Source of the DNA: a virus | Strand: one strand, 5' to 3' | DNA length: 64,000 nt | IMG/VR virus record: IMGVR_UViG_3300036766_002289 | Location: 28,056 to 92,055 of that record | In this document: in pieces, positions 8,822 through 46,457 of the stretch | Layout of the letters: every line of letters begins with the position of its first letter | Position numbering within the stretch: the stretch's first letter is position 1 | Notes under the pieces: generated by a model | The model's database searches: none | Told to the model about the DNA's origin: nothing | Seen by the model: only the letters and a program-made list of their open reading frames with translations | Position numbers and translations under genes: made by a program

Positions 8822-8892
8822 GGGCGATTAGTTCACTGGTAGAATACCAGCCTGACGTGCTGAAGAAAAGGGTTCGATTCCCTTATTGCCCA
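8822..8892 (+). tRNA. tRNA-Val(GAC)
   Basis: Cloverleaf by eye: acceptor GGGCGAT/ATTGCCC, T-arm AAGGG-TTCGATT-CCCTT, anticodon loop CTGACGT. Confidence 0.6.
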
Positions 8893-8898
8893 CTATAT

Positions 8899-8973
8899 CA
8901 GGGATTAGCGCAGTTTGGCTAGCGCGCCTGCCTTGGACGCAGGAGGCCAAAGGTTCAAATCCTTTATCCCTGA
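8899..8973 (+). tRNA. tRNA-Pro(TGG)
   Basis: Acceptor CAGGGAT/ATCCCTG, D-stem GCGC, anticodon loop CTTGGAC, T-loop TTCAAAT. Confidence 0.6.
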
Positions 8974-8979
8974 CTTTAT

Positions 8980-9050
8980 TGAGGGTTCGTCTAATGGTAG
9001 GACGAGAGGCTTTGAACCTCTCTGTGGGCGTTCGACTCGCTCACCCTCAG
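8980..9050 (+). tRNA. tRNA-Gln(TTG)
   Basis: Acceptor TGAGGGT/ACCCTCA, anticodon loop CTTTGAA, T-loop TTCGACT. Confidence 0.55.
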
Positions 9051-9205
9051 CTATGGAAGAAAAACAATATTTATCTAATAGAGATAAAGTGCTTTCCCCA
9101 AGATTGGGAAAAGGATGGTGTATTTGCGATAGGGTTTACATAGGAAACTATGAAAAATGTCCTATATGCAAACGAAGAAACGGTAGAAGAAGATTAAAGA
9201 GGTAA

Positions 9206-9279
9206 CGGGCAATGGGCTAACGGTAAGCCGCCTACGTCGGAAGTAGGACAACATTTCGGTTCGAATCCGAATTGCCCGA
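9206..9279 (+). tRNA. tRNA-Pro(CGG)
   Basis: Acceptor CGGGCAA/TTGCCCG, D-stem GGCT/AGCC, anticodon loop GTCGGAA, T-arm TTCGG-TTCGAAT-CCGAA. Confidence 0.5.
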
Positions 9280-9375
9280 CTATAAAAGCCTGGATAAATC
9301 GAGGGCAAGGTGAACTGTCATGAGACATTACTCCTAAATGGTCCAGGTGATTCCAAAAGAATCCCCATACCCCGA

Positions 9376-9391
9376 TAGCTTAGTTGTACCA
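9376..9391 (+). promoter_or_regulatory. conserved motif TAGCTTAGTTGTACCA (copy 2)
   Basis: Exact 16-mer between two tRNA genes. Confidence 0.4.
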
Positions 9392-9401
9392 AGAACGTTT
9401 T

Positions 9402-9475
9402 CTGGCTGTGGGCTAATGGTAAGCCTCCTGCGTTGGAAGCAGGACATCATCTCAGTTCGACTCTGAGTAGCCAGA
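9402..9475 (+). tRNA. tRNA-Pro(TGG), paralogue of 9206-9279
   Basis: Acceptor CTGGCTG/TAGCCAG, same D-arm, anticodon loop GTTGGAA, 7-nt variable region ACATCAT. Confidence 0.5.
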
Positions 9476-9484
9476 CTGATTTAT

Positions 9485-9559
9485 TGCGGTGGTTTCAGTG
9501 CTGGTACTGATCTCTGCCTTTGAAGCAGATGTACGCTGGTTCAATTCCAGCCGCCGCAG
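9485..9559 (+). tRNA. tRNA-Gln(TTG), second diverged copy
   Basis: D-arm TCAG-TGCTGGTA-CTGA, anticodon arm TCTGC-CTTTGAA-GCAGA, T-arm GCTGG-TTCAATT-CCAGC. Confidence 0.5.
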
Positions 9560-9563
9560 CTAG

Positions 9564-9634
9564 TAAGTGTCGTAGTGTATCGGACAGCACACTCCCGTCC
9601 TGGGAGTAGAACCGTTCAATTCGGTAGCACTTAC
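9564..9634 (+). tRNA. atypical tRNA-like gene (possible Gly-TCC; irregular D/anticodon arms)
   Basis: Acceptor TAAGTGT/GCACTTA and T-loop TTCAATT are clear; the anticodon arm is ambiguous. Confidence 0.3.
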
Positions 9635-9642
9635 TTCCTATC

Positions 9643-43734: not shown

Positions 43735-43743
43735 GGGAAAATT

Positions 43744-44136
43744 ATGAACCAGGAACAAATCATCTCACAAGTTAAGACAGTCGTAACGGATTGCCTTAAT
43801 GTTGATGAGGACGAAATCACTCTAGATTCTAGGCTTAGTGCCGATTTGGGGGCAGAGTCCATCGACTTTTTGGATTTGACATTCAGACTTGAAAGACAAT
43901 TCAATATAAGAATCCCACATGGCGACTTGTTCCCAACTGACCTTTTTAGGGATTTAGATAATTGTGTCGAAGGTGGTAAAGTTACACCTAAAGGAATTGA
44001 CTTGCTGAAGAGTAAAATTCCTTTTGCTGATTTTTCTGAGTGGGAGAAAAACCCACAATATGCTACCGTTACGGATTCCTTTACCGTTGGGACTTTGGTA
44101 AAGTATATTGGGATGCAGCAAACCATTATCAGCTAG
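43744..44136 (+). CDS. acyl-carrier-protein-like (PP-binding) domain protein
   Basis: N-terminal about 80 aa with DLGAESIDFLDL (ACP Ser-attachment-like DSL/ESI helix II motif). Confidence 0.5.
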   Translation: MNQEQIISQVKTVVTDCLNVDEDEITLDSRLSADLGAESIDFLDLTFRLERQFNIRIPHGDLFPTDLFRDLDNCVEGGKVTPKGIDLLKSKIPFADFSEWEKNPQYATVTDSFTVGTLVKYIGMQQTIIS

Positions 44137-44272
44137 GAGTTGAAATGTATTACTTGTTTACACAATGTCCCAATGGCGATTGGGAGTTGATTGTTGAATC
44201 AAAGGACTTTGCATACATCAACAGGGTGGAAAGAGAGTTGAATTATCACGGCATTATTACTGGTATGGTGGG

Positions 44273-45049
44273 ATGGTAGAACCGAACCAAATATACTGCT
44301 GTGACTATCTTGAACTACTTAGGCAAATTCCAGATAACTCTGTATCCTTAGTGTTGTCAGACCCGCCTTTTGGTATCAACTATAGCAATAACTATACCAA
44401 AAAAAAGCATGAAGTCCTACAAGGCGATGCTAGCAAGTTCTCTTATCTAGAATTTGGCAAGGAAGCCTTCAGAATTCTTAAAGATGACACCGCAATCTTT
44501 GTTTTTACTGGCTGGAGCGAATATCCAGACCACTATAAACAATTAGAGTCTTGCGGATTCTCTATGAAGGAACCAATTATTTGCCAGAAGAGAGCTTCTG
44601 GCAAAACTGATTTATACGGTTCTTTTCAAACCAATTCCGATTGGATTATTTTTGCTCATAAGGGCAGATTTAAGTTCAGGAAGACTACTTTAGTAAAGAA
44701 TAAGAAGGCTGGTGTAATTCCTAATATTGGAAGGTCGCCCGTGCCAGAGTATAAAACGCGATTTCCCTCTTGTTGGTTTGGTGAAGAATATCCTTGGTCA
44801 AGTGAGAATTCTGCGTGGCAGAAGGTCAACGGGATTTATCACCCAACTATAAAAGGGCAAATGTTCCTGATGTGGTTGATCCTTTTATCTACAGAACCTG
44901 GGGATTTAGTTGTTGATCCTTTTGTTGGGTCTGGGACAACTGCTGTGGCAGCAAAAATGGCTGCTAGGCAGTTTTTTGCTAGTGACGTATCACCAGAGTT
45001 TTGTGAGCAAGCAAGGAAGCGATTGACATTGTGTGATTTTGTAGTATAG
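44273..45049 (+). CDS. DNA methyltransferase (beta-class N6-adenine/N4-cytosine)
   Basis: Motif IV DPPF (LSDPPFG) precedes motif I VVDPFVGSGTT. Confidence 0.7.
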   Translation: MVEPNQIYCCDYLELLRQIPDNSVSLVLSDPPFGINYSNNYTKKKHEVLQGDASKFSYLEFGKEAFRILKDDTAIFVFTGWSEYPDHYKQLESCGFSMKEPIICQKRASGKTDLYGSFQTNSDWIIFAHKGRFKFRKTTLVKNKKAGVIPNIGRSPVPEYKTRFPSCWFGEEYPWSSENSAWQKVNGIYHPTIKGQMFLMWLILLSTEPGDLVVDPFVGSGTTAVAAKMAARQFFASDVSPEFCEQARKRLTLCDFVV

Positions 45050-45400
45050 TAAAGGTGTATGTATGAAAATGGAGACCTGTATGCATGTCGCCGCCAGAAT
45101 TTGGTGCGACAAGGAATTTGAGCATATCGTAATGGATACGGATGTCGCAATGAAGATTGCTAAGATATTGTTCTTTGTAGCCAATGCAGATGAGGCTAGT
45201 CGTGTATTATTGGCGGATACAACTAAGTCACAGTGAAGTGTATTGGTCGTCGAGTATCAATTATGGTCTGTTCTCAGTACCGCGTGAAGCGGTTTTGGAT
45301 GGGCATATGCTTAATGCATTTTTGACTTCTGTTGTGAAGATTGATAAAATTTCAAAAGAACAATATAATGAATTTATGGTCGATTGATATATAAATTCAT

Positions 45401-45472
45401 GCTACTCTGGCAGAGAAGTGATGCACCGCTCTAGTAAGGCGGACAAGGTGGGCGCGATACCCACGGGTAGCT
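45401..45472 (+). tRNA. atypical tRNA-like gene (anticodon loop CTAGTAA reads AGT; non-canonical T-loop CGCGATA)
   Basis: Acceptor GCTACTC/GGGTAGC, D-stem GCA/TGC, anticodon stem CCGCT/GGCGG. Confidence 0.35.
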
Positions 45473-45476
45473 CTGC

Positions 45477-45548
45477 GCCACTTTGGCAGAGCGGTTATGC
45501 ACTGGTTTTGTAAACCAGACAATCTGGGTTCGACTCCCAGAGGTGGCT
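45477..45548 (+). tRNA. tRNA-Thr(TGT), second diverged copy
   Basis: Acceptor GCCACTT/AGGTGGC, anticodon arm CTGGT-TTTGTAA-ACCAG, T-arm CTGGG-TTCGACT-CCCAG. Confidence 0.55.
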
Positions 45549-45551
45549 CTT

Positions 45552-45788
45552 ATGAAATTTGATTTTAAAAATCGAAAGTATCATAGTCTAAAGATTACAG
45601 CCACCAATCCAAAAGATATTTGGTTAAGTGATGACGAAGGTAATCTAGTCCAAAAAGAAGATGTTTTAATGGATACTAGCTTAATTCCTGGCAATTACTT
45701 TGTTGAGTTTGGGCTTGGCAATAAGCAATACTCAATCAAGCTAGATAAAAATTTAGAATTCAAACAATCAGATTTTGAAGGAAATTAA
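45552..45788 (+). CDS. hypothetical protein
   Basis: ATG 45552 just after the tRNA. Confidence 0.4.
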   Translation: MKFDFKNRKYHSLKITATNPKDIWLSDDEGNLVQKEDVLMDTSLIPGNYFVEFGLGNKQYSIKLDKNLEFKQSDFEGN

Positions 45789-46009
45789 TGGAAGATATAG
45801 ATTCGACTGAAGTAATTGACAATGAATATTGGATAGTTAGTCTTGGGAATGTGGCCGAATTAATGGGTCGGGCGCAGTTAAGTATAGGTAAATCCATTGC
45901 AAGTCCCAACCATGTTCAAGGTGAATTGGCGTTAGCCTTTTTGAAAAAGGCTGTCAGAGAACTTGAAGAAACGCTTGATAAAAATTCAAGCGAACAATCG
46001 AAGGAGTGA
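45788..46009 (+). CDS. hypothetical protein
   Basis: ORF 73 aa. Confidence 0.4.
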   Translation: MEDIDSTEVIDNEYWIVSLGNVAELMGRAQLSIGKSIASPNHVQGELALAFLKKAVRELEETLDKNSSEQSKE

Positions 46010-46012
46010 GTC

Positions 46013-46372
46013 ATGTCCACTGAATTGCGGGCTGCTATCATTACTCTTTTGGAGAATGGTGGTCAGGTAAACATGGACGCTGACCTTGCTTGTTACTCAA
46101 CCCGTGACGGATACTACTTTGTTGAATATTTTCTTAATCCAGATACTGTTGATACCATGAACCTTACTGCCCATGAAAAGAAACTTTTGGATAATGAAGA
46201 AGAGTTGATGGAGATATTTGATAAGCCAGAAGAAGCGGCAGACTTCTACATGAGGCTTACTAATGGCAGAATGATTCCTGTGCCAAGTTATTGCCGTGAT
46301 AAGTCCCCAAAGAAGTCCATCAAGGAAAAAGTTGTTGAAGTAAAAGTTGCAGAAAAAGATGATTATTTCTAG
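46013..46372 (+). CDS. hypothetical protein
   Basis: ggag RBS; ORF 119 aa. Confidence 0.45.
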   Translation: MSTELRAAIITLLENGGQVNMDADLACYSTRDGYYFVEYFLNPDTVDTMNLTAHEKKLLDNEEELMEIFDKPEEAADFYMRLTNGRMIPVPSYCRDKSPKKSIKEKVVEVKVAEKDDYF

Positions 46373-46385
46373 TATATAAGTGTAT

Positions 46386-46457
46386 GCGGCTGTAACTCAA
46401 TGGCAGAGTGCTGGTTTTCCAAGCCAGATGTTGTGGGTTCAAGTCCCATCAGCCGCT
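46386..46457 (+). tRNA. tRNA-Gly(TCC), second diverged copy
   Basis: Acceptor GCGGCTG/CAGCCGC, D-stem ACTC/GAGT, anticodon arm CTGGT-TTTCCAA-GCCAG, T-loop TTCAAGT. Confidence 0.55.

Follow-up and report, generated by a model that had tools for sequence, protein, structure and literature searches.

The stretch of DNA examined here, called the window below, comprises 64,000 nucleotides (positions 28,056 to 92,055) of the IMG/VR virus record IMGVR_UViG_3300036766_002289. It carries a large array of transfer RNA (tRNA) genes, interleaved with the open reading frames (ORFs) of a phage. ARAGORN at its default threshold predicts 39 tRNA genes, all on the plus strand, from position 8345 to position 46458. 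In 20 shuffled windows used as controls it predicts none at default and 0.2 per window at a relaxed threshold, compared to 46 in the real sequence. With the curated gathering score of 29 bits as cut-off, the Rfam model RF00005 retains 36 elements in a first pass, and laxer filters add tRNA-Pro CGG 9206 and tRNA-Glu TTC 11366; the scores of the resulting 38 elements range from 29.0 to 69.5 bits. Two elements, tRNA-His GTG at 13746–13817 and a 92-nt tRNA at 14342–14433, are found by Rfam but missed by ARAGORN at default, and the union of the two methods amounts to 41 tRNA genes. ARAGORN at the relaxed threshold, together with a stem scan (which looks for a T-arm hairpin and, after it, an acceptor strand able to pair with a 5′ partner), adds about seven sub-threshold tRNA-like elements, at 9643, 33983, 19065, 20513, 37591, 38654 and 45401. 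All of these miss the gathering score of RF00005, as do the elements at 9565, 23738 and 41132.

In total, 47 tRNA and tRNA-like genes lie inside 8822–46457, and 48 when the tRNA-Met gene at 8345 is included. An earlier note, written from the letters of this DNA, had estimated about 45 such genes in 38 kb, and ARAGORN, Rfam and the relaxed scans bear this out: the covariance model passes 38 elements, so that most candidates are not rejected, and the default ARAGORN calls have no counterpart in the shuffled windows. Its list of anticodons proves right almost item by item, apart from Gly TCC, of which there are three genes and not two, and from an Arg ACG-like, a Thr AGT-like and a second His GTG gene, which have to be added. 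The note had seen no clean Met, Leu, Ser or Tyr gene. A tRNA-Met CAT gene does exist (8345–8417), just upstream of the region then considered, but no class II tRNA for Leu, Ser or Tyr came up with any of the methods. Between them, the approximately 41 bona fide cloverleaf tRNAs represent 16 amino acids with 25 anticodons; the insert-bearing CAA tRNA, if included, brings the number of amino acids to 17. RNAalifold, applied to 40 sequences, gives a cloverleaf with compensatory changes in 20 of the 21 predicted pairs; the G53–C61 pair is invariant. None of the tRNA genes encodes the 3′ CCA.

A dense head cluster (8345–14594) packs 28 tRNA and tRNA-like genes into 6.3 kb, many of them spaced by 4–11 nt. 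It is followed by a 32-kb tail in which about 20 more occur, singly or in pairs, behind small ORFs. All the array tRNAs share the orientation of the surrounding genes. The window is syntenic with the 595-kb uncultured phage LR756511.1 (LR756511 below) and with the 373-kb IMG/VR contig UViG_3300003310_000099, the two relatives with which the array is compared in what follows.

Gene content of the array

Unless stated otherwise, the tRNA genes listed here are predicted by ARAGORN and the Rfam score is given in brackets; all the features of the window are on the plus strand. Upstream of the array, a consensus scan picks out a terminator-like hairpin with a 13-bp stem (7857–7886), and the best sigma-70-like promoter match (TTGACA-16-TATATT, 11/12; 7939–7966) is a candidate ahead of the first tRNA. 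The head cluster opens with tRNA-Met CAT (8345–8417; 50.8 bits), which has a 1×72 mismatch and belongs to the A18/G55 class described below. It is followed by tRNA-Val GAC (8822–8893; 61.3 bits), a tRNA-Pro TGG of bacterial-consensus type (8899–8974; 68.2 bits; 86% identical to a tRNA-Pro of cyanophage S-TIM5) and tRNA-Gln TTG (8980–9051; 56.7 bits). tRNA-Pro CGG (9206–9280; 53.4 bits), with a 7-nt variable loop, is 79% identical to its paralog tRNA-Pro TGG (9402–9476; 50.0 bits). A second tRNA-Gln TTG (9485–9560; 34.7 bits) is 87% identical to a Gln TTG tRNA of LR756511. The tRNA-Gly TCC at 9565–9634, called by ARAGORN only and without an Rfam hit, is atypical, with G33 and weak T and acceptor stems. 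After the first copy of an Ala-type tRNA-like element (9643–9712) come tRNA-Val TAC (9718–9789; T-loop TCCGATT; 51.3 bits), tRNA-Ile GAT (9796–9868; 56.2 bits) and another tRNA-Gly TCC (9880–9952; 58.9 bits).

Further into the head cluster, two tRNA-Lys TTT genes (10423–10495, 48.1 bits; 10585–10659, 29.0 bits, which equals the gathering score) flank a canonical tRNA-Ala TGC with a G3:U70 pair (10504–10574; 49.6 bits). Two tRNA-Phe GAA genes are found at 10664–10736 (54.5 bits; 92% identical to tRNA-Phe 145 of L007) and 10939–11012 (55.9 bits). A conserved 114-nt spacer (11013–11126) separates the latter from two tRNA-Asn GTT genes (11127–11200, 54.8 bits, 88% identical to its IMG/VR ortholog; 11207–11278, 62.0 bits), and these are followed by tRNA-His GTG (11286–11357; 57.3 bits) and a tRNA-Glu TTC (11366–11439; 44.4 bits) with the T-loop ATCGAAA, that is with A54 and A60. 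The cluster continues with tRNA-Thr TGT (12666–12739; 50.8 bits), tRNA-Lys CTT (13079–13151; 57.3 bits), a second tRNA-Lys CTT of 85 nt, which has a 15-nt variable region and a 3-bp D stem (13660–13744; 43.4 bits), and the second tRNA-His GTG (13746–13817; 47.5 bits), which ARAGORN reports at the relaxed threshold only. It ends with two tRNA-Asp GTC genes on either side of the insert-bearing tRNA at 14342–14433: one at 14259–14333 (51.4 bits) and one of bacterial-consensus type at 14519–14594 (58.1 bits; 83% identical to its LR756511 ortholog).

In the tail, tRNA-Trp CCA (16450–16523; 29.9 bits; 93% identical to its IMG/VR ortholog), tRNA-Asn GTT (17104–17177; 65.3 bits; 89% identical to its ortholog) and tRNA-Thr CGT (18992–19063; 61.4 bits; ortholog in L005) precede a weak 108-nt tRNA-like element (19065–19172) and a tRNA-Arg ACG-like gene (20513–20586). 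tRNA-Gly GCC (22747–22818; 53.3 bits) has the T-loop TCCGATT. The tRNA-Glu CTC (23738–23810) and tRNA-Glu TTC (23929–24001) genes enclose a candidate structured RNA of 118 nt (23811–23928). Beyond them lie tRNA-Pro TGG (30501–30577; 59.4 bits; 79% identical to LR756511 Pro 13909), tRNA-Arg TCG (33186–33259; 52.5 bits), the second copy of the Ala-type element (33983–34052) and a Cys GCA-like tRNA-like element (37591–37668). The array then continues with tRNA-Arg CCT (38576–38648; 57.5 bits), an element made of an acceptor/T-arm minihelix and a long hairpin (38654–38728), two tRNA-Arg TCT genes (39385–39457, 55.8 bits; 39462–39534, 59.4 bits) and tRNA-Ile TAT (41132–41204; ARAGORN default; LR756511 ortholog 73% identical). 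The Thr AGT-like gene (45401–45473) stands in tandem with its paralog tRNA-Thr TGT (45477–45549; 60.9 bits), and a tRNA-Gly TCC (46386–46458; 69.5 bits) is the last gene of the array.

Five HNH endonuclease genes, recognized with PHROGs at E values of 1e-26 to 1e-40, lie between the tRNAs. Four match phrog_2255 (10009–10449, E 1.5e-33; 11442–11909, E 1.5e-29; 13156–13698, E 2.1e-26; 34683–35165, E 3.7e-30). The fifth (14627–15238; phrog_3106, E 7.7e-40) has two HNH modules, internal repeats and two matched stretches. The repeated CxxC/HNH coding motifs were first picked up by direct-repeat analysis; Pfam gave no match for the HNH ORFs, but PHROGs did. One DUF559 or restriction-endonuclease-like gene (20601–21503) also lies within the array. 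The array endonucleases are thus of the HNH and DUF559 types, and not of the GIY-YIG family. The Arg ACG-like tRNA is immediately followed by a perfect 20-bp palindrome (20596–20638), located where the DUF559 ORF begins; possible roles are those of a terminator or of a site for an endonuclease.

SegB, a homing endonuclease encoded inside the tRNA cluster of phage T4, drives the preferential inheritance of that region (PMC2330249), and a homing endonuclease gene adjoins the bacterial L-arrays (PMC8421152). By analogy, the HNH and DUF559 genes of the window probably drive the shuffling or exchange of array segments, and homing-type endonuclease genes embedded in this way offer a plausible mechanism of exchange. 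A segmental duplication is visible between 33227–33270 and 38696–38739; it takes in the 3′ portion of a tRNA together with the beginning of the following ORF.

Two S-adenosylmethionine (SAM) methyltransferase genes, at 32622–33164 and 37828–38562, lie directly upstream of tRNA-Arg TCG and tRNA-Arg CCT, respectively. The product of the former is 70% identical to an LR756511 protein encoded at the same position, and that of the latter has a faint match to tRNA cmo5U methyltransferases (E 3e-4). Their matches are to generic class I methyltransferases and do not support an assignment of either to tRNA modification.

Phage context and inheritance of the array

About 25 ORFs across the whole window have homologs in LR756511, in conserved order. 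The ATP-dependent DNA ligase (25490–26596) is 68% identical in protein sequence to that of LR756511.1 and 87% identical to that of the 373-kb IMG/VR contig. A 2482-aa ORF with many internal repeats (55530–62978) has PHROGs matches to tail-fibre and virion structural proteins. Other genes of the window encode an N6/N4 DNA methylase, an SPFH protein, an ion channel, an acyl carrier protein, a NADAR domain protein, a methionine aminopeptidase, a SAICAR synthetase and two generic SAM methyltransferases. The location of the array in a phage genome is supported by the synteny, by the protein identities and by the tail-fibre, virion and HNH PHROG matches. Since the surroundings are those of a phage, and neither a bacterial chromosome nor a plasmid, the possibility that the array is a bacterial L-array was rejected.

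Megablast of 22 kb of the window against 50,697 phage records gave zero matches, and an exact look-up of the ligase protein returned no record. Closer relatives were sought by a viral-contig scan with the ORF at 6921–7787, by a metagenome scan with a conserved array ORF (15691–16095) and by a genome-contig scan, and none was found. A metagenome scan with the ligase placed the next relatives at 69% and 63% identity, one of them from Hainich groundwater. The contigs of these metagenome ligase relatives (best 69%) carry no tRNAs, and the genome and metagenome scans gave no clue to the host. Judged from its genes, the window is phage DNA of a lineage that is absent from the reference collections searched.

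The corresponding array of LR756511 contains 41 tRNA genes in 48 kb, with about 10 more in the adjacent DNA, and its order is roughly that of the window: Met stands at one end, and Arg CCT, two Arg TCT and Ile TAT lie towards the other. The 373-kb IMG/VR contig has at least 19 tRNAs. Orthologous tRNAs are 73–93% identical and their differences are compensatory, for example in the anticodon stem of Trp 16450, the T stem of Asn 17104, the acceptor and anticodon stems of Asp and the T stem of Met. These compensatory changes indicate that the tRNA structure is under selection in both lineages.

Copies with the same anticodon share 46–79% of their positions, compared to a mean of 54% between tRNAs for different amino acids, which confirms the earlier remark that such copies are clearly different. 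The sole near-identical pair is a 79-nt repeat (9639–9717 and 33979–34057). For 32 of the 38 multi-copy tRNAs of the window, the closest relative is a tRNA of another phage and not the tRNA's own paralog, so that most same-anticodon paralogs seem to predate the divergence from LR756511. The margin exceeds 10 identity points in only about 11 of the 32: Gln 9485, both Phe, Asn 11127 and 17104, Asp 14519, Gly GCC, Pro 30501, Arg TCG, Arg TCT 39385 and Ile TAT. The anticodon loops of paralogs are identical for Lys, Asn, Gln, Glu TTC, Arg TCT and Thr TGT; they differ for Pro, Gly, Phe, Asp and His.

Some pairs have arisen by local duplication followed by a change of anticodon position 34, namely Pro CGG 9206 and TGG 9402 (79% identical), Arg CCT 38576 and TCT 39462 (73%), and Thr AGT 45401 and TGT 45477 (71%). 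Similarly, some apparent orthologs differ in anticodon, such as Arg TCG of the window and Arg ACG of the IMG/VR contig (79%). In the Pro and Asp families, one copy is 80–93% identical to tRNAs of unrelated phages and its partner matches nothing. Overall, the array appears old and inherited, with a content that shifts slowly through duplication, anticodon change, loss and rearrangement. It had been suggested from the sequence that the duplicated set accumulated from different sources; as far as recent acquisition is concerned, the synteny and orthology with LR756511 contradict this. An older patchwork origin of the array is nevertheless possible, as the Pro and Asp families each have one copy that resembles widespread phage tRNAs.

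Elbow variants and other atypical elements

Five tRNAs of the window form a class, termed A18/G55, in which AG replaces G18G19 in the D-loop and position 55 of the T-loop is G. They are tRNA-Met 8345 (D-loop AGAAGAA, T-loop TGCAAAT), tRNA-Arg ACG-like 20513 (D-loop GATAGATA, T-loop AGCGTAA; found by relaxed ARAGORN, without an Rfam hit, and 75% identical to the canonical Arg ACG of LR756511), tRNA-Glu CTC 23738 (D-loop TCTAGAGA, T-loop AGCGTAA; ARAGORN default, no Rfam hit), tRNA-Glu TTC 23929 (D-loop AGAAGTTA, T-loop AGCATTA; ARAGORN, 57.1 bits) and tRNA-Thr AGT-like 45401 (D-loop GAGAAGTGA, T-loop CGCGATA; relaxed ARAGORN). The acceptor and T stems are perfect in Arg, Glu CTC, Glu TTC and Thr, and the 1×72 mismatch is the only defect in Met. 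In a survey of the elbow in 44 scored tRNAs, 36 have GG with T55–C56 (four of these with A54), two have GG with C55, five have AG with G55–C56 and one has neither GG nor AG. Both changes are present in 5/5 members of the class, and either change alone in 0/39 of the other scored tRNAs (about 1e-6 by Fisher's exact test on the 5/0/0/39 table, a calculation of our own and not a tool output). G55 is found in 0/74 tRNAs examined in the relatives.

The orthologs and paralogs of the A18/G55 tRNAs have GG with TTC, and the alignments show direct G-to-A and T-to-G substitutions. The LR756511 ortholog of Met 8345, for instance, is 81% identical and has GG with TTC, and Thr AGT 45401 shows 29% divergence from its tandem neighbour 45477, with compensation in each of the stems. 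The A18/G55 combination thus looks like a covariation of the G18–Psi55 tertiary contact in which G19–C56 is kept, and not like decay. Three of the five genes also have an A54–U58 swap for U54–A58, and A54–T58 swaps occur in four elements overall.

A review of the T-loop describes U55 and G18 as conserved and mentions A54 of eukaryotic initiators as the sole exception (PMC7912444). The only documented case of G55 that was found is that of the staphylococcal non-proteogenic tRNAGly, in which TGC or TGT replaces TTC (PMC7826273); a literature search returned nothing on A18 combined with G55 in a tRNA. The G55 feature of the Staphylococcus tRNAGly type is present in the five window tRNAs, and the likeness extends to the TGC-type T-loop triplet, the lack of pseudouridine and the altered GG of the D-loop. 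However, the staphylococcal tRNA is specific for Gly and belongs to a bacterium with a Fem pathway, whereas the change in the window affects Met, Arg, two Glu and Thr tRNAs, which keep G19–C56 and have G18 replaced by A. The T-stem pairs 49–65, 50–64 and 51–63 of the G55 tRNAs show no common pattern, and no gene for a transferase of the Fem/MurM type or similar was seen in the window.

Other tertiary positions vary as well. The T-loop ATCGAAA (A54 and A60, with GG kept) is shared by Glu TTC 11366 of the window, Glu TTC 34317 of LR756511 (L006 34317–34389, minus strand) and the orthologous Phe tRNAs of both relatives (L005 47–120; L006 36442–36515, minus strand), and its carriers show compensatory stem changes. 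The closest Glu tRNA of LR756511 to Glu TTC 11366 is CTC 33021 (79%), which has the canonical T-loop TTCGAAT; the identity to Glu TTC 34317 is about 75% by a hand count of the alignment. A T-loop with A54 and A60 resembles that of eukaryotic initiator tRNA. Both tRNA-Lys TTT (10423–10495 and 10585–10659) have A8 and T14, an apparent swap of the U8–A14 tertiary pair, and the Arg ACG and Arg TCG tRNAs have G8 with G14. Met 8345 has an A1×A72 mismatch in both phages (L006 37953–38025, minus strand), which recalls the 1×72 mismatch of the bacterial initiator, but only two of the three anticodon-stem G–C pairs. The anticodon TAT of tRNA-Ile 41132 is rare in bacteria, and the loop is identical in LR756511 (L006 1808–1882, minus strand); this tRNA would read ATA, whose relative synonymous codon usage (RSCU) is 0.92, without a lysidine pathway.

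The 92-nt tRNA at 14342–14433 (43.4 bits; also found by the ARAGORN intron search) has a class I body with 21 extra nt in the anticodon loop, where the Rfam alignment places 24 nt in the position of three in the model. Removal of the insert at 37/38 leaves the loop CUCAAGA, with a CAA anticodon; the tRNA has A73 and a short variable loop. A tRNA of LR756511 (L009 14339–14431, minus strand; 54.4 bits) has exactly 21 extra nt as well, between positions 32 and 33 of a CAU loop. A bulge-helix-bulge intron (two 3-nt bulges and a 4-bp helix) was rejected for both inserts by manual pairing and minimum-energy folds. Group I introns were rejected too, as the inserts are 21 nt long compared to a core of 200 nt or more, and there is no Rfam intron hit.

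It is conceivable, although doubtful, that the phage lineage has re-engineered the elbow of working tRNAs (A18–G55) and that the hairpin inserts in the anticodon loops of otherwise canonical tRNAs of the clade are removed by an undescribed bacterial or phage route, or mark tRNAs that are switched off or act as decoys. If the elbow has been re-engineered, these tRNAs would be unable to receive Psi55 (or Gm18) and would present an altered elbow. Possible gains would be the escape from a host factor that reads or cuts the T-loop or elbow, or a marking for phage-specific handling.

The idea that the long atypical elements might be the Leu, Ser and Tyr tRNAs does not hold. The element at 13660–13744 is a tRNA-Lys CTT with a 15-nt variable region, 14342–14433 is a class I tRNA with an insert, the one possible Leu tRNA (CAA) among them, and 19065–19172 is a weak tRNA-like element. 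The last, detected by relaxed ARAGORN and the stem scan, has a canonical T arm, 6/7 acceptor pairs and about 35 extra nt; L005 lacks it at the corresponding position. Neither ARAGORN nor Rfam at E values up to 1 nor the motif scans revealed a long-variable-arm tRNA for Leu, Ser or Tyr in the window, and ARAGORN at default finds no class II tRNA in about 175 kb of LR756511 (165–340 kb) around its array. In LR756511, the ARAGORN intron search gives one 128-nt candidate with a long variable arm (L008 1311–1438). That phage also encodes a 75-nt class I-like "Ser CGA" tRNA (L008 1000–1074), a tRNA with the 4-base anticodon GAAA (L008 615–690) and an amber-reading CTA tRNA (L001 26384–26457); none of the three occurs in the window.

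The alanine marks G3:U70 and A73 are present in three atypical elements (9643, 33983 and 38654). The first two (9643–9712 and 33983–34052), found by relaxed ARAGORN and repeat analysis, are identical over 70 nt and have the anticodon TGC, the T-loop ATCGTAA and a reduced D arm. They are part of the repeat 9639–9717/33979–34057, which is 97% identical over 79 nt, with copies 24 kb apart, and is the only near-identical repeat of the array; the 70-nt element has no match in a viral-contig scan or by blastn against the phage database. The third (38654–38728; relaxed ARAGORN) is 75 nt long; its T arm is canonical, but a long hairpin stands where the D and anticodon arms would be, and there is no credible anticodon arm. 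The 3′ portion of this element, together with the beginning of the ORF downstream, has a paralogous stretch in the Arg TCG locus (33227–33270). A transfer-messenger RNA at 38654–38730 was rejected: RF00023 gives 19 bits compared to a gathering score of 47, ARAGORN finds none and the element has only 75 nt. The Cys GCA-like element at 37591 (stem scan; weak hit of 22.4 bits with the tRNA-Sec model) has an 8-bp acceptor stem, a 4-bp T stem and an aberrant D region. Most atypical elements keep perfect 7-bp acceptor and 5-bp T stems.

Function of the array and alternative explanations

The array is probably a tRNA island of the huge-phage class (about 370–600 kb), inherited within its clade and providing the phage with a tRNA pool of its own. 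Such a phage-controlled pool is the role proposed for the tRNAs of huge phages (PMC7162821). The tRNAs would be co-transcribed with their neighbours and cut out by RNase P and 3′ nucleases, and CCA would be added by a host or phage nucleotidyltransferase. The island is inherited in the phage clade, a minority of its copies having come from local duplication followed by anticodon change. The embedded endonucleases may exchange array segments between co-infecting relatives, as SegB does in T4. The phage's own pool would free the translation of its AT-rich genes from a host pool that is mismatched, depleted or cut by defences.

Multi-copy families of the window (Lys, Asn, Asp, His, Arg, Glu and Gln) overlap the known target families of tRNases. 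Phage tRNAs are known to evade host tRNases (PMC10264068, PMC11555353). As the paralogs mostly share the anticodon loop, any selection for nuclease resistance would have to act on the stems or the elbow, which is speculative. The retention of diverged isodecoders seems to fit a selection on tRNA bodies better than gene dosage.

Several points weigh against this account. The set is incomplete, with no class II tRNA for Leu, Ser or Tyr and no clean tRNA-Cys in the window, so that the host would still be needed for about 20% of the codons unless the genes lie outside the window. The evasion of nucleases by mutation of the anticodon loop is not visible among the paralogs, whose loops are mostly identical. 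Many of the 32/38 margins in favour of other phages are small, 1–5 identity points, and about 11 exceed 10. The promoter and terminator calls are consensus matches, and as promoter-like matches in the region are in total not above chance, the one at 7939–7966 stays a candidate. Finally, the account is drawn from gene sequences and from a comparison with the tRNAs of other phages.

Codon usage was counted in the 62 plus-strand ORFs of at least 100 aa of this window, unweighted by expression and on the phage side only. The G+C content at third codon positions (GC3) is 30% and codons ending in A or T are preferred, which would suit an effect of gene dosage, in which extra copies raise the supply for the most-used A/T-ending codons; the earlier note had indeed proposed a selection for a high dosage of AT-rich-codon decoders. 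Several families agree with it: AGA has an RSCU of 2.15 and two genes, CCA 2.04 and three genes, GAA 1.49 and two genes, and CAA 1.34 and two genes. However, tRNA copy number is not significantly correlated with amino-acid use (Spearman 0.15, or 0.38 without Leu, Ser and Tyr) or with the codon load per anticodon (Spearman 0.19–0.30). The supply does not follow the demand of the window ORFs in other families either, since GGA has an RSCU of 0.67 yet three genes, Ala accounts for 6.8% of the codons with one canonical gene, Pro for 3.8% with four genes, and Leu, Ser and Tyr for 18% with no class II gene. Moreover, near-identical copies would suffice for dosage, whereas the actual ones are 46–79% identical and have been separate since before the LR756511 split. 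Dosage is an unlikely explanation of the redundancy. A recent patchwork of copies acquired independently from different hosts or phages is improbable too. It would account for paralogs whose identity is near the background between different amino acids, for the Pro and Asp copies that are 80–93% identical to tRNAs of unrelated phages while their partners are unmatched, and for the homing-type endonuclease genes and an array content that varies between relatives. But the order of the array is syntenic with LR756511, and paralogs (three to four Pro, Asn, Asp, Phe, Arg and Gln) each have their own best match in LR756511, which means that the diversity predates that split. In addition, the phage database yields no near-identical counterpart for any tRNA of the window, and some pairs are clearly local duplications.

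The atypical elements raise two further possibilities. Many copies, above all these, might be decaying products of duplication and rearrangement without function, as about ten elements fail or barely reach the Rfam score, Gly TCC 9565 has G33, 38654 lacks an anticodon arm, 37591 has an aberrant D region and 19065 is missing in a relative. There is also a precedent in the Anabaena L-array, where 3/26 genes behave as pseudogenes (PMC8421152). Decay is nonetheless quite unlikely for the array at large, given that most atypical elements have perfect 7-bp acceptor and 5-bp T stems, that Thr AGT 45401 has diverged by 29% with all stems compensated and that A18 and G55 are coupled in 5/5 cases, with 0/39 others showing a single change. 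The ATCGAAA T-loop, too, is conserved with compensatory stems in the Phe orthologs and Glu TTC genes, and the 21-nt type of insert recurs in a high-scoring tRNA of LR756511. Alternatively, the atypical subset could act outside the ribosome, as aminoacyl donors, as decoys or competitors, or as elbow variants invisible to a host reader of G18/Psi55. The three elements with G3:U70 and A73 but aberrant bodies, and the strict coupling of the changes at 18 and 55, would be in keeping with this. It is hardly to be expected, however, of the five G55 tRNAs, which have ordinary anticodon loops (Met, Arg, two Glu and Thr) and two of which score 51–57 bits with the general tRNA model. All three Glu genes of the window have non-canonical T-loops, so at least some of these tRNAs are probably working Glu decoders, and no Fem/MurM-type transferase was seen in the window. 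A non-ribosomal role is thus rather improbable.

The preferred reading, a clade-inherited huge-phage island, agrees with known systems, and its main feature, a huge-phage tRNA island associated with homing endonucleases as in T4, is already known. The tRNA complements of huge phages, among them the 595-kb LR756511.1, were described by Al-Shayeb et al. (2020, Nature; PMC7162821), with up to 67 tRNAs in the published genomes. Like these, the window has dozens of tRNAs per genome, many isodecoders, sequences unlike typical bacterial tRNAs, a translation-related neighbour (methionine aminopeptidase) and a gene order syntenic with LR756511. It differs in that its genome has no megablast match, that its ligase is 68–87% identical to those of the relatives and that five A18/G55 tRNAs are present, compared to 0/74 in the relatives. 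The bacterial L-arrays (PMC8421152) and mycobacterial array units (PMC5966550) comprise up to 43 co-oriented supernumerary tRNA genes and share with the window a redundancy of isodecoders with little gain of anticodons, a neighbouring homing endonuclease, horizontal spread and a few pseudogenes. They lie in chromosomes or plasmids, in contrast to the window array, which is interleaved with phage ORFs in a phage genome. The phage tRNAs that evade nucleases (PMC10264068, PMC11555353) likewise are isodecoders that deviate from the expected norm, but it is their anticodon loop that differs from that of the host; in the window, the paralogs mostly share the loop and differ in the stems and elbow.

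No description was found of the elbow covariation, of a 21-nt insert that recurs, of the alanine-identity mini-tRNAs or of the lack of class II tRNAs. The window adds one more lineage, with clean support for the inheritance and individual maintenance of the array and of most paralogs in it. Its natural variants probe which "universal" tRNA features are replaceable (18–55, 54–58 and 8–14). If the elbow variants work in translation, they would be candidate scaffolds for orthogonal tRNAs, and they would hint at the elbow, besides the anticodon loop, as a site of action of host defences or phage factors.

The T4 (SegB, PMC2330249) and T5-like tRNA regions share with the window a tight same-strand cluster with embedded free-standing homing endonuclease genes. 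Compared to T4, the window array is five times larger and has a long dispersed tail, and its endonucleases (5–6 predicted genes) are HNH and DUF559, not GIY-YIG. The T4 tRNA cluster also holds extra stable small RNAs, to which the 118-nt structured RNA of the window (23811–23928) is comparable. This element folds into a three-way junction (folding z −3.8) and is 78% identical to L005 8741–8860; in 7/37 of its pairs both partners have changed and the pairing is preserved. No Rfam family corresponds to it, and a blastn search of the phages with the Glu pair was negative. The tRNA operon probably produces it as a stable small RNA.

The 114-nt spacer between tRNA-Phe and tRNA-Asn (11013–11126), a possible small RNA or micro-ORF, is 92.6% identical to L005 284–391, more than the flanking tRNAs are, with a folding z of −2.9 and no covariation. 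It starts with AAGGAG and contains a possible 30-codon ORF with a TTG start, where the relative has CTG at the start position. In LR756511, a spacer of about 105 nt between Asp tRNAs (L006 34926–35030, minus strand) has an 8-bp closing stem (GTTACTAC / GTAGTAAC) and may be another non-tRNA RNA of the array.

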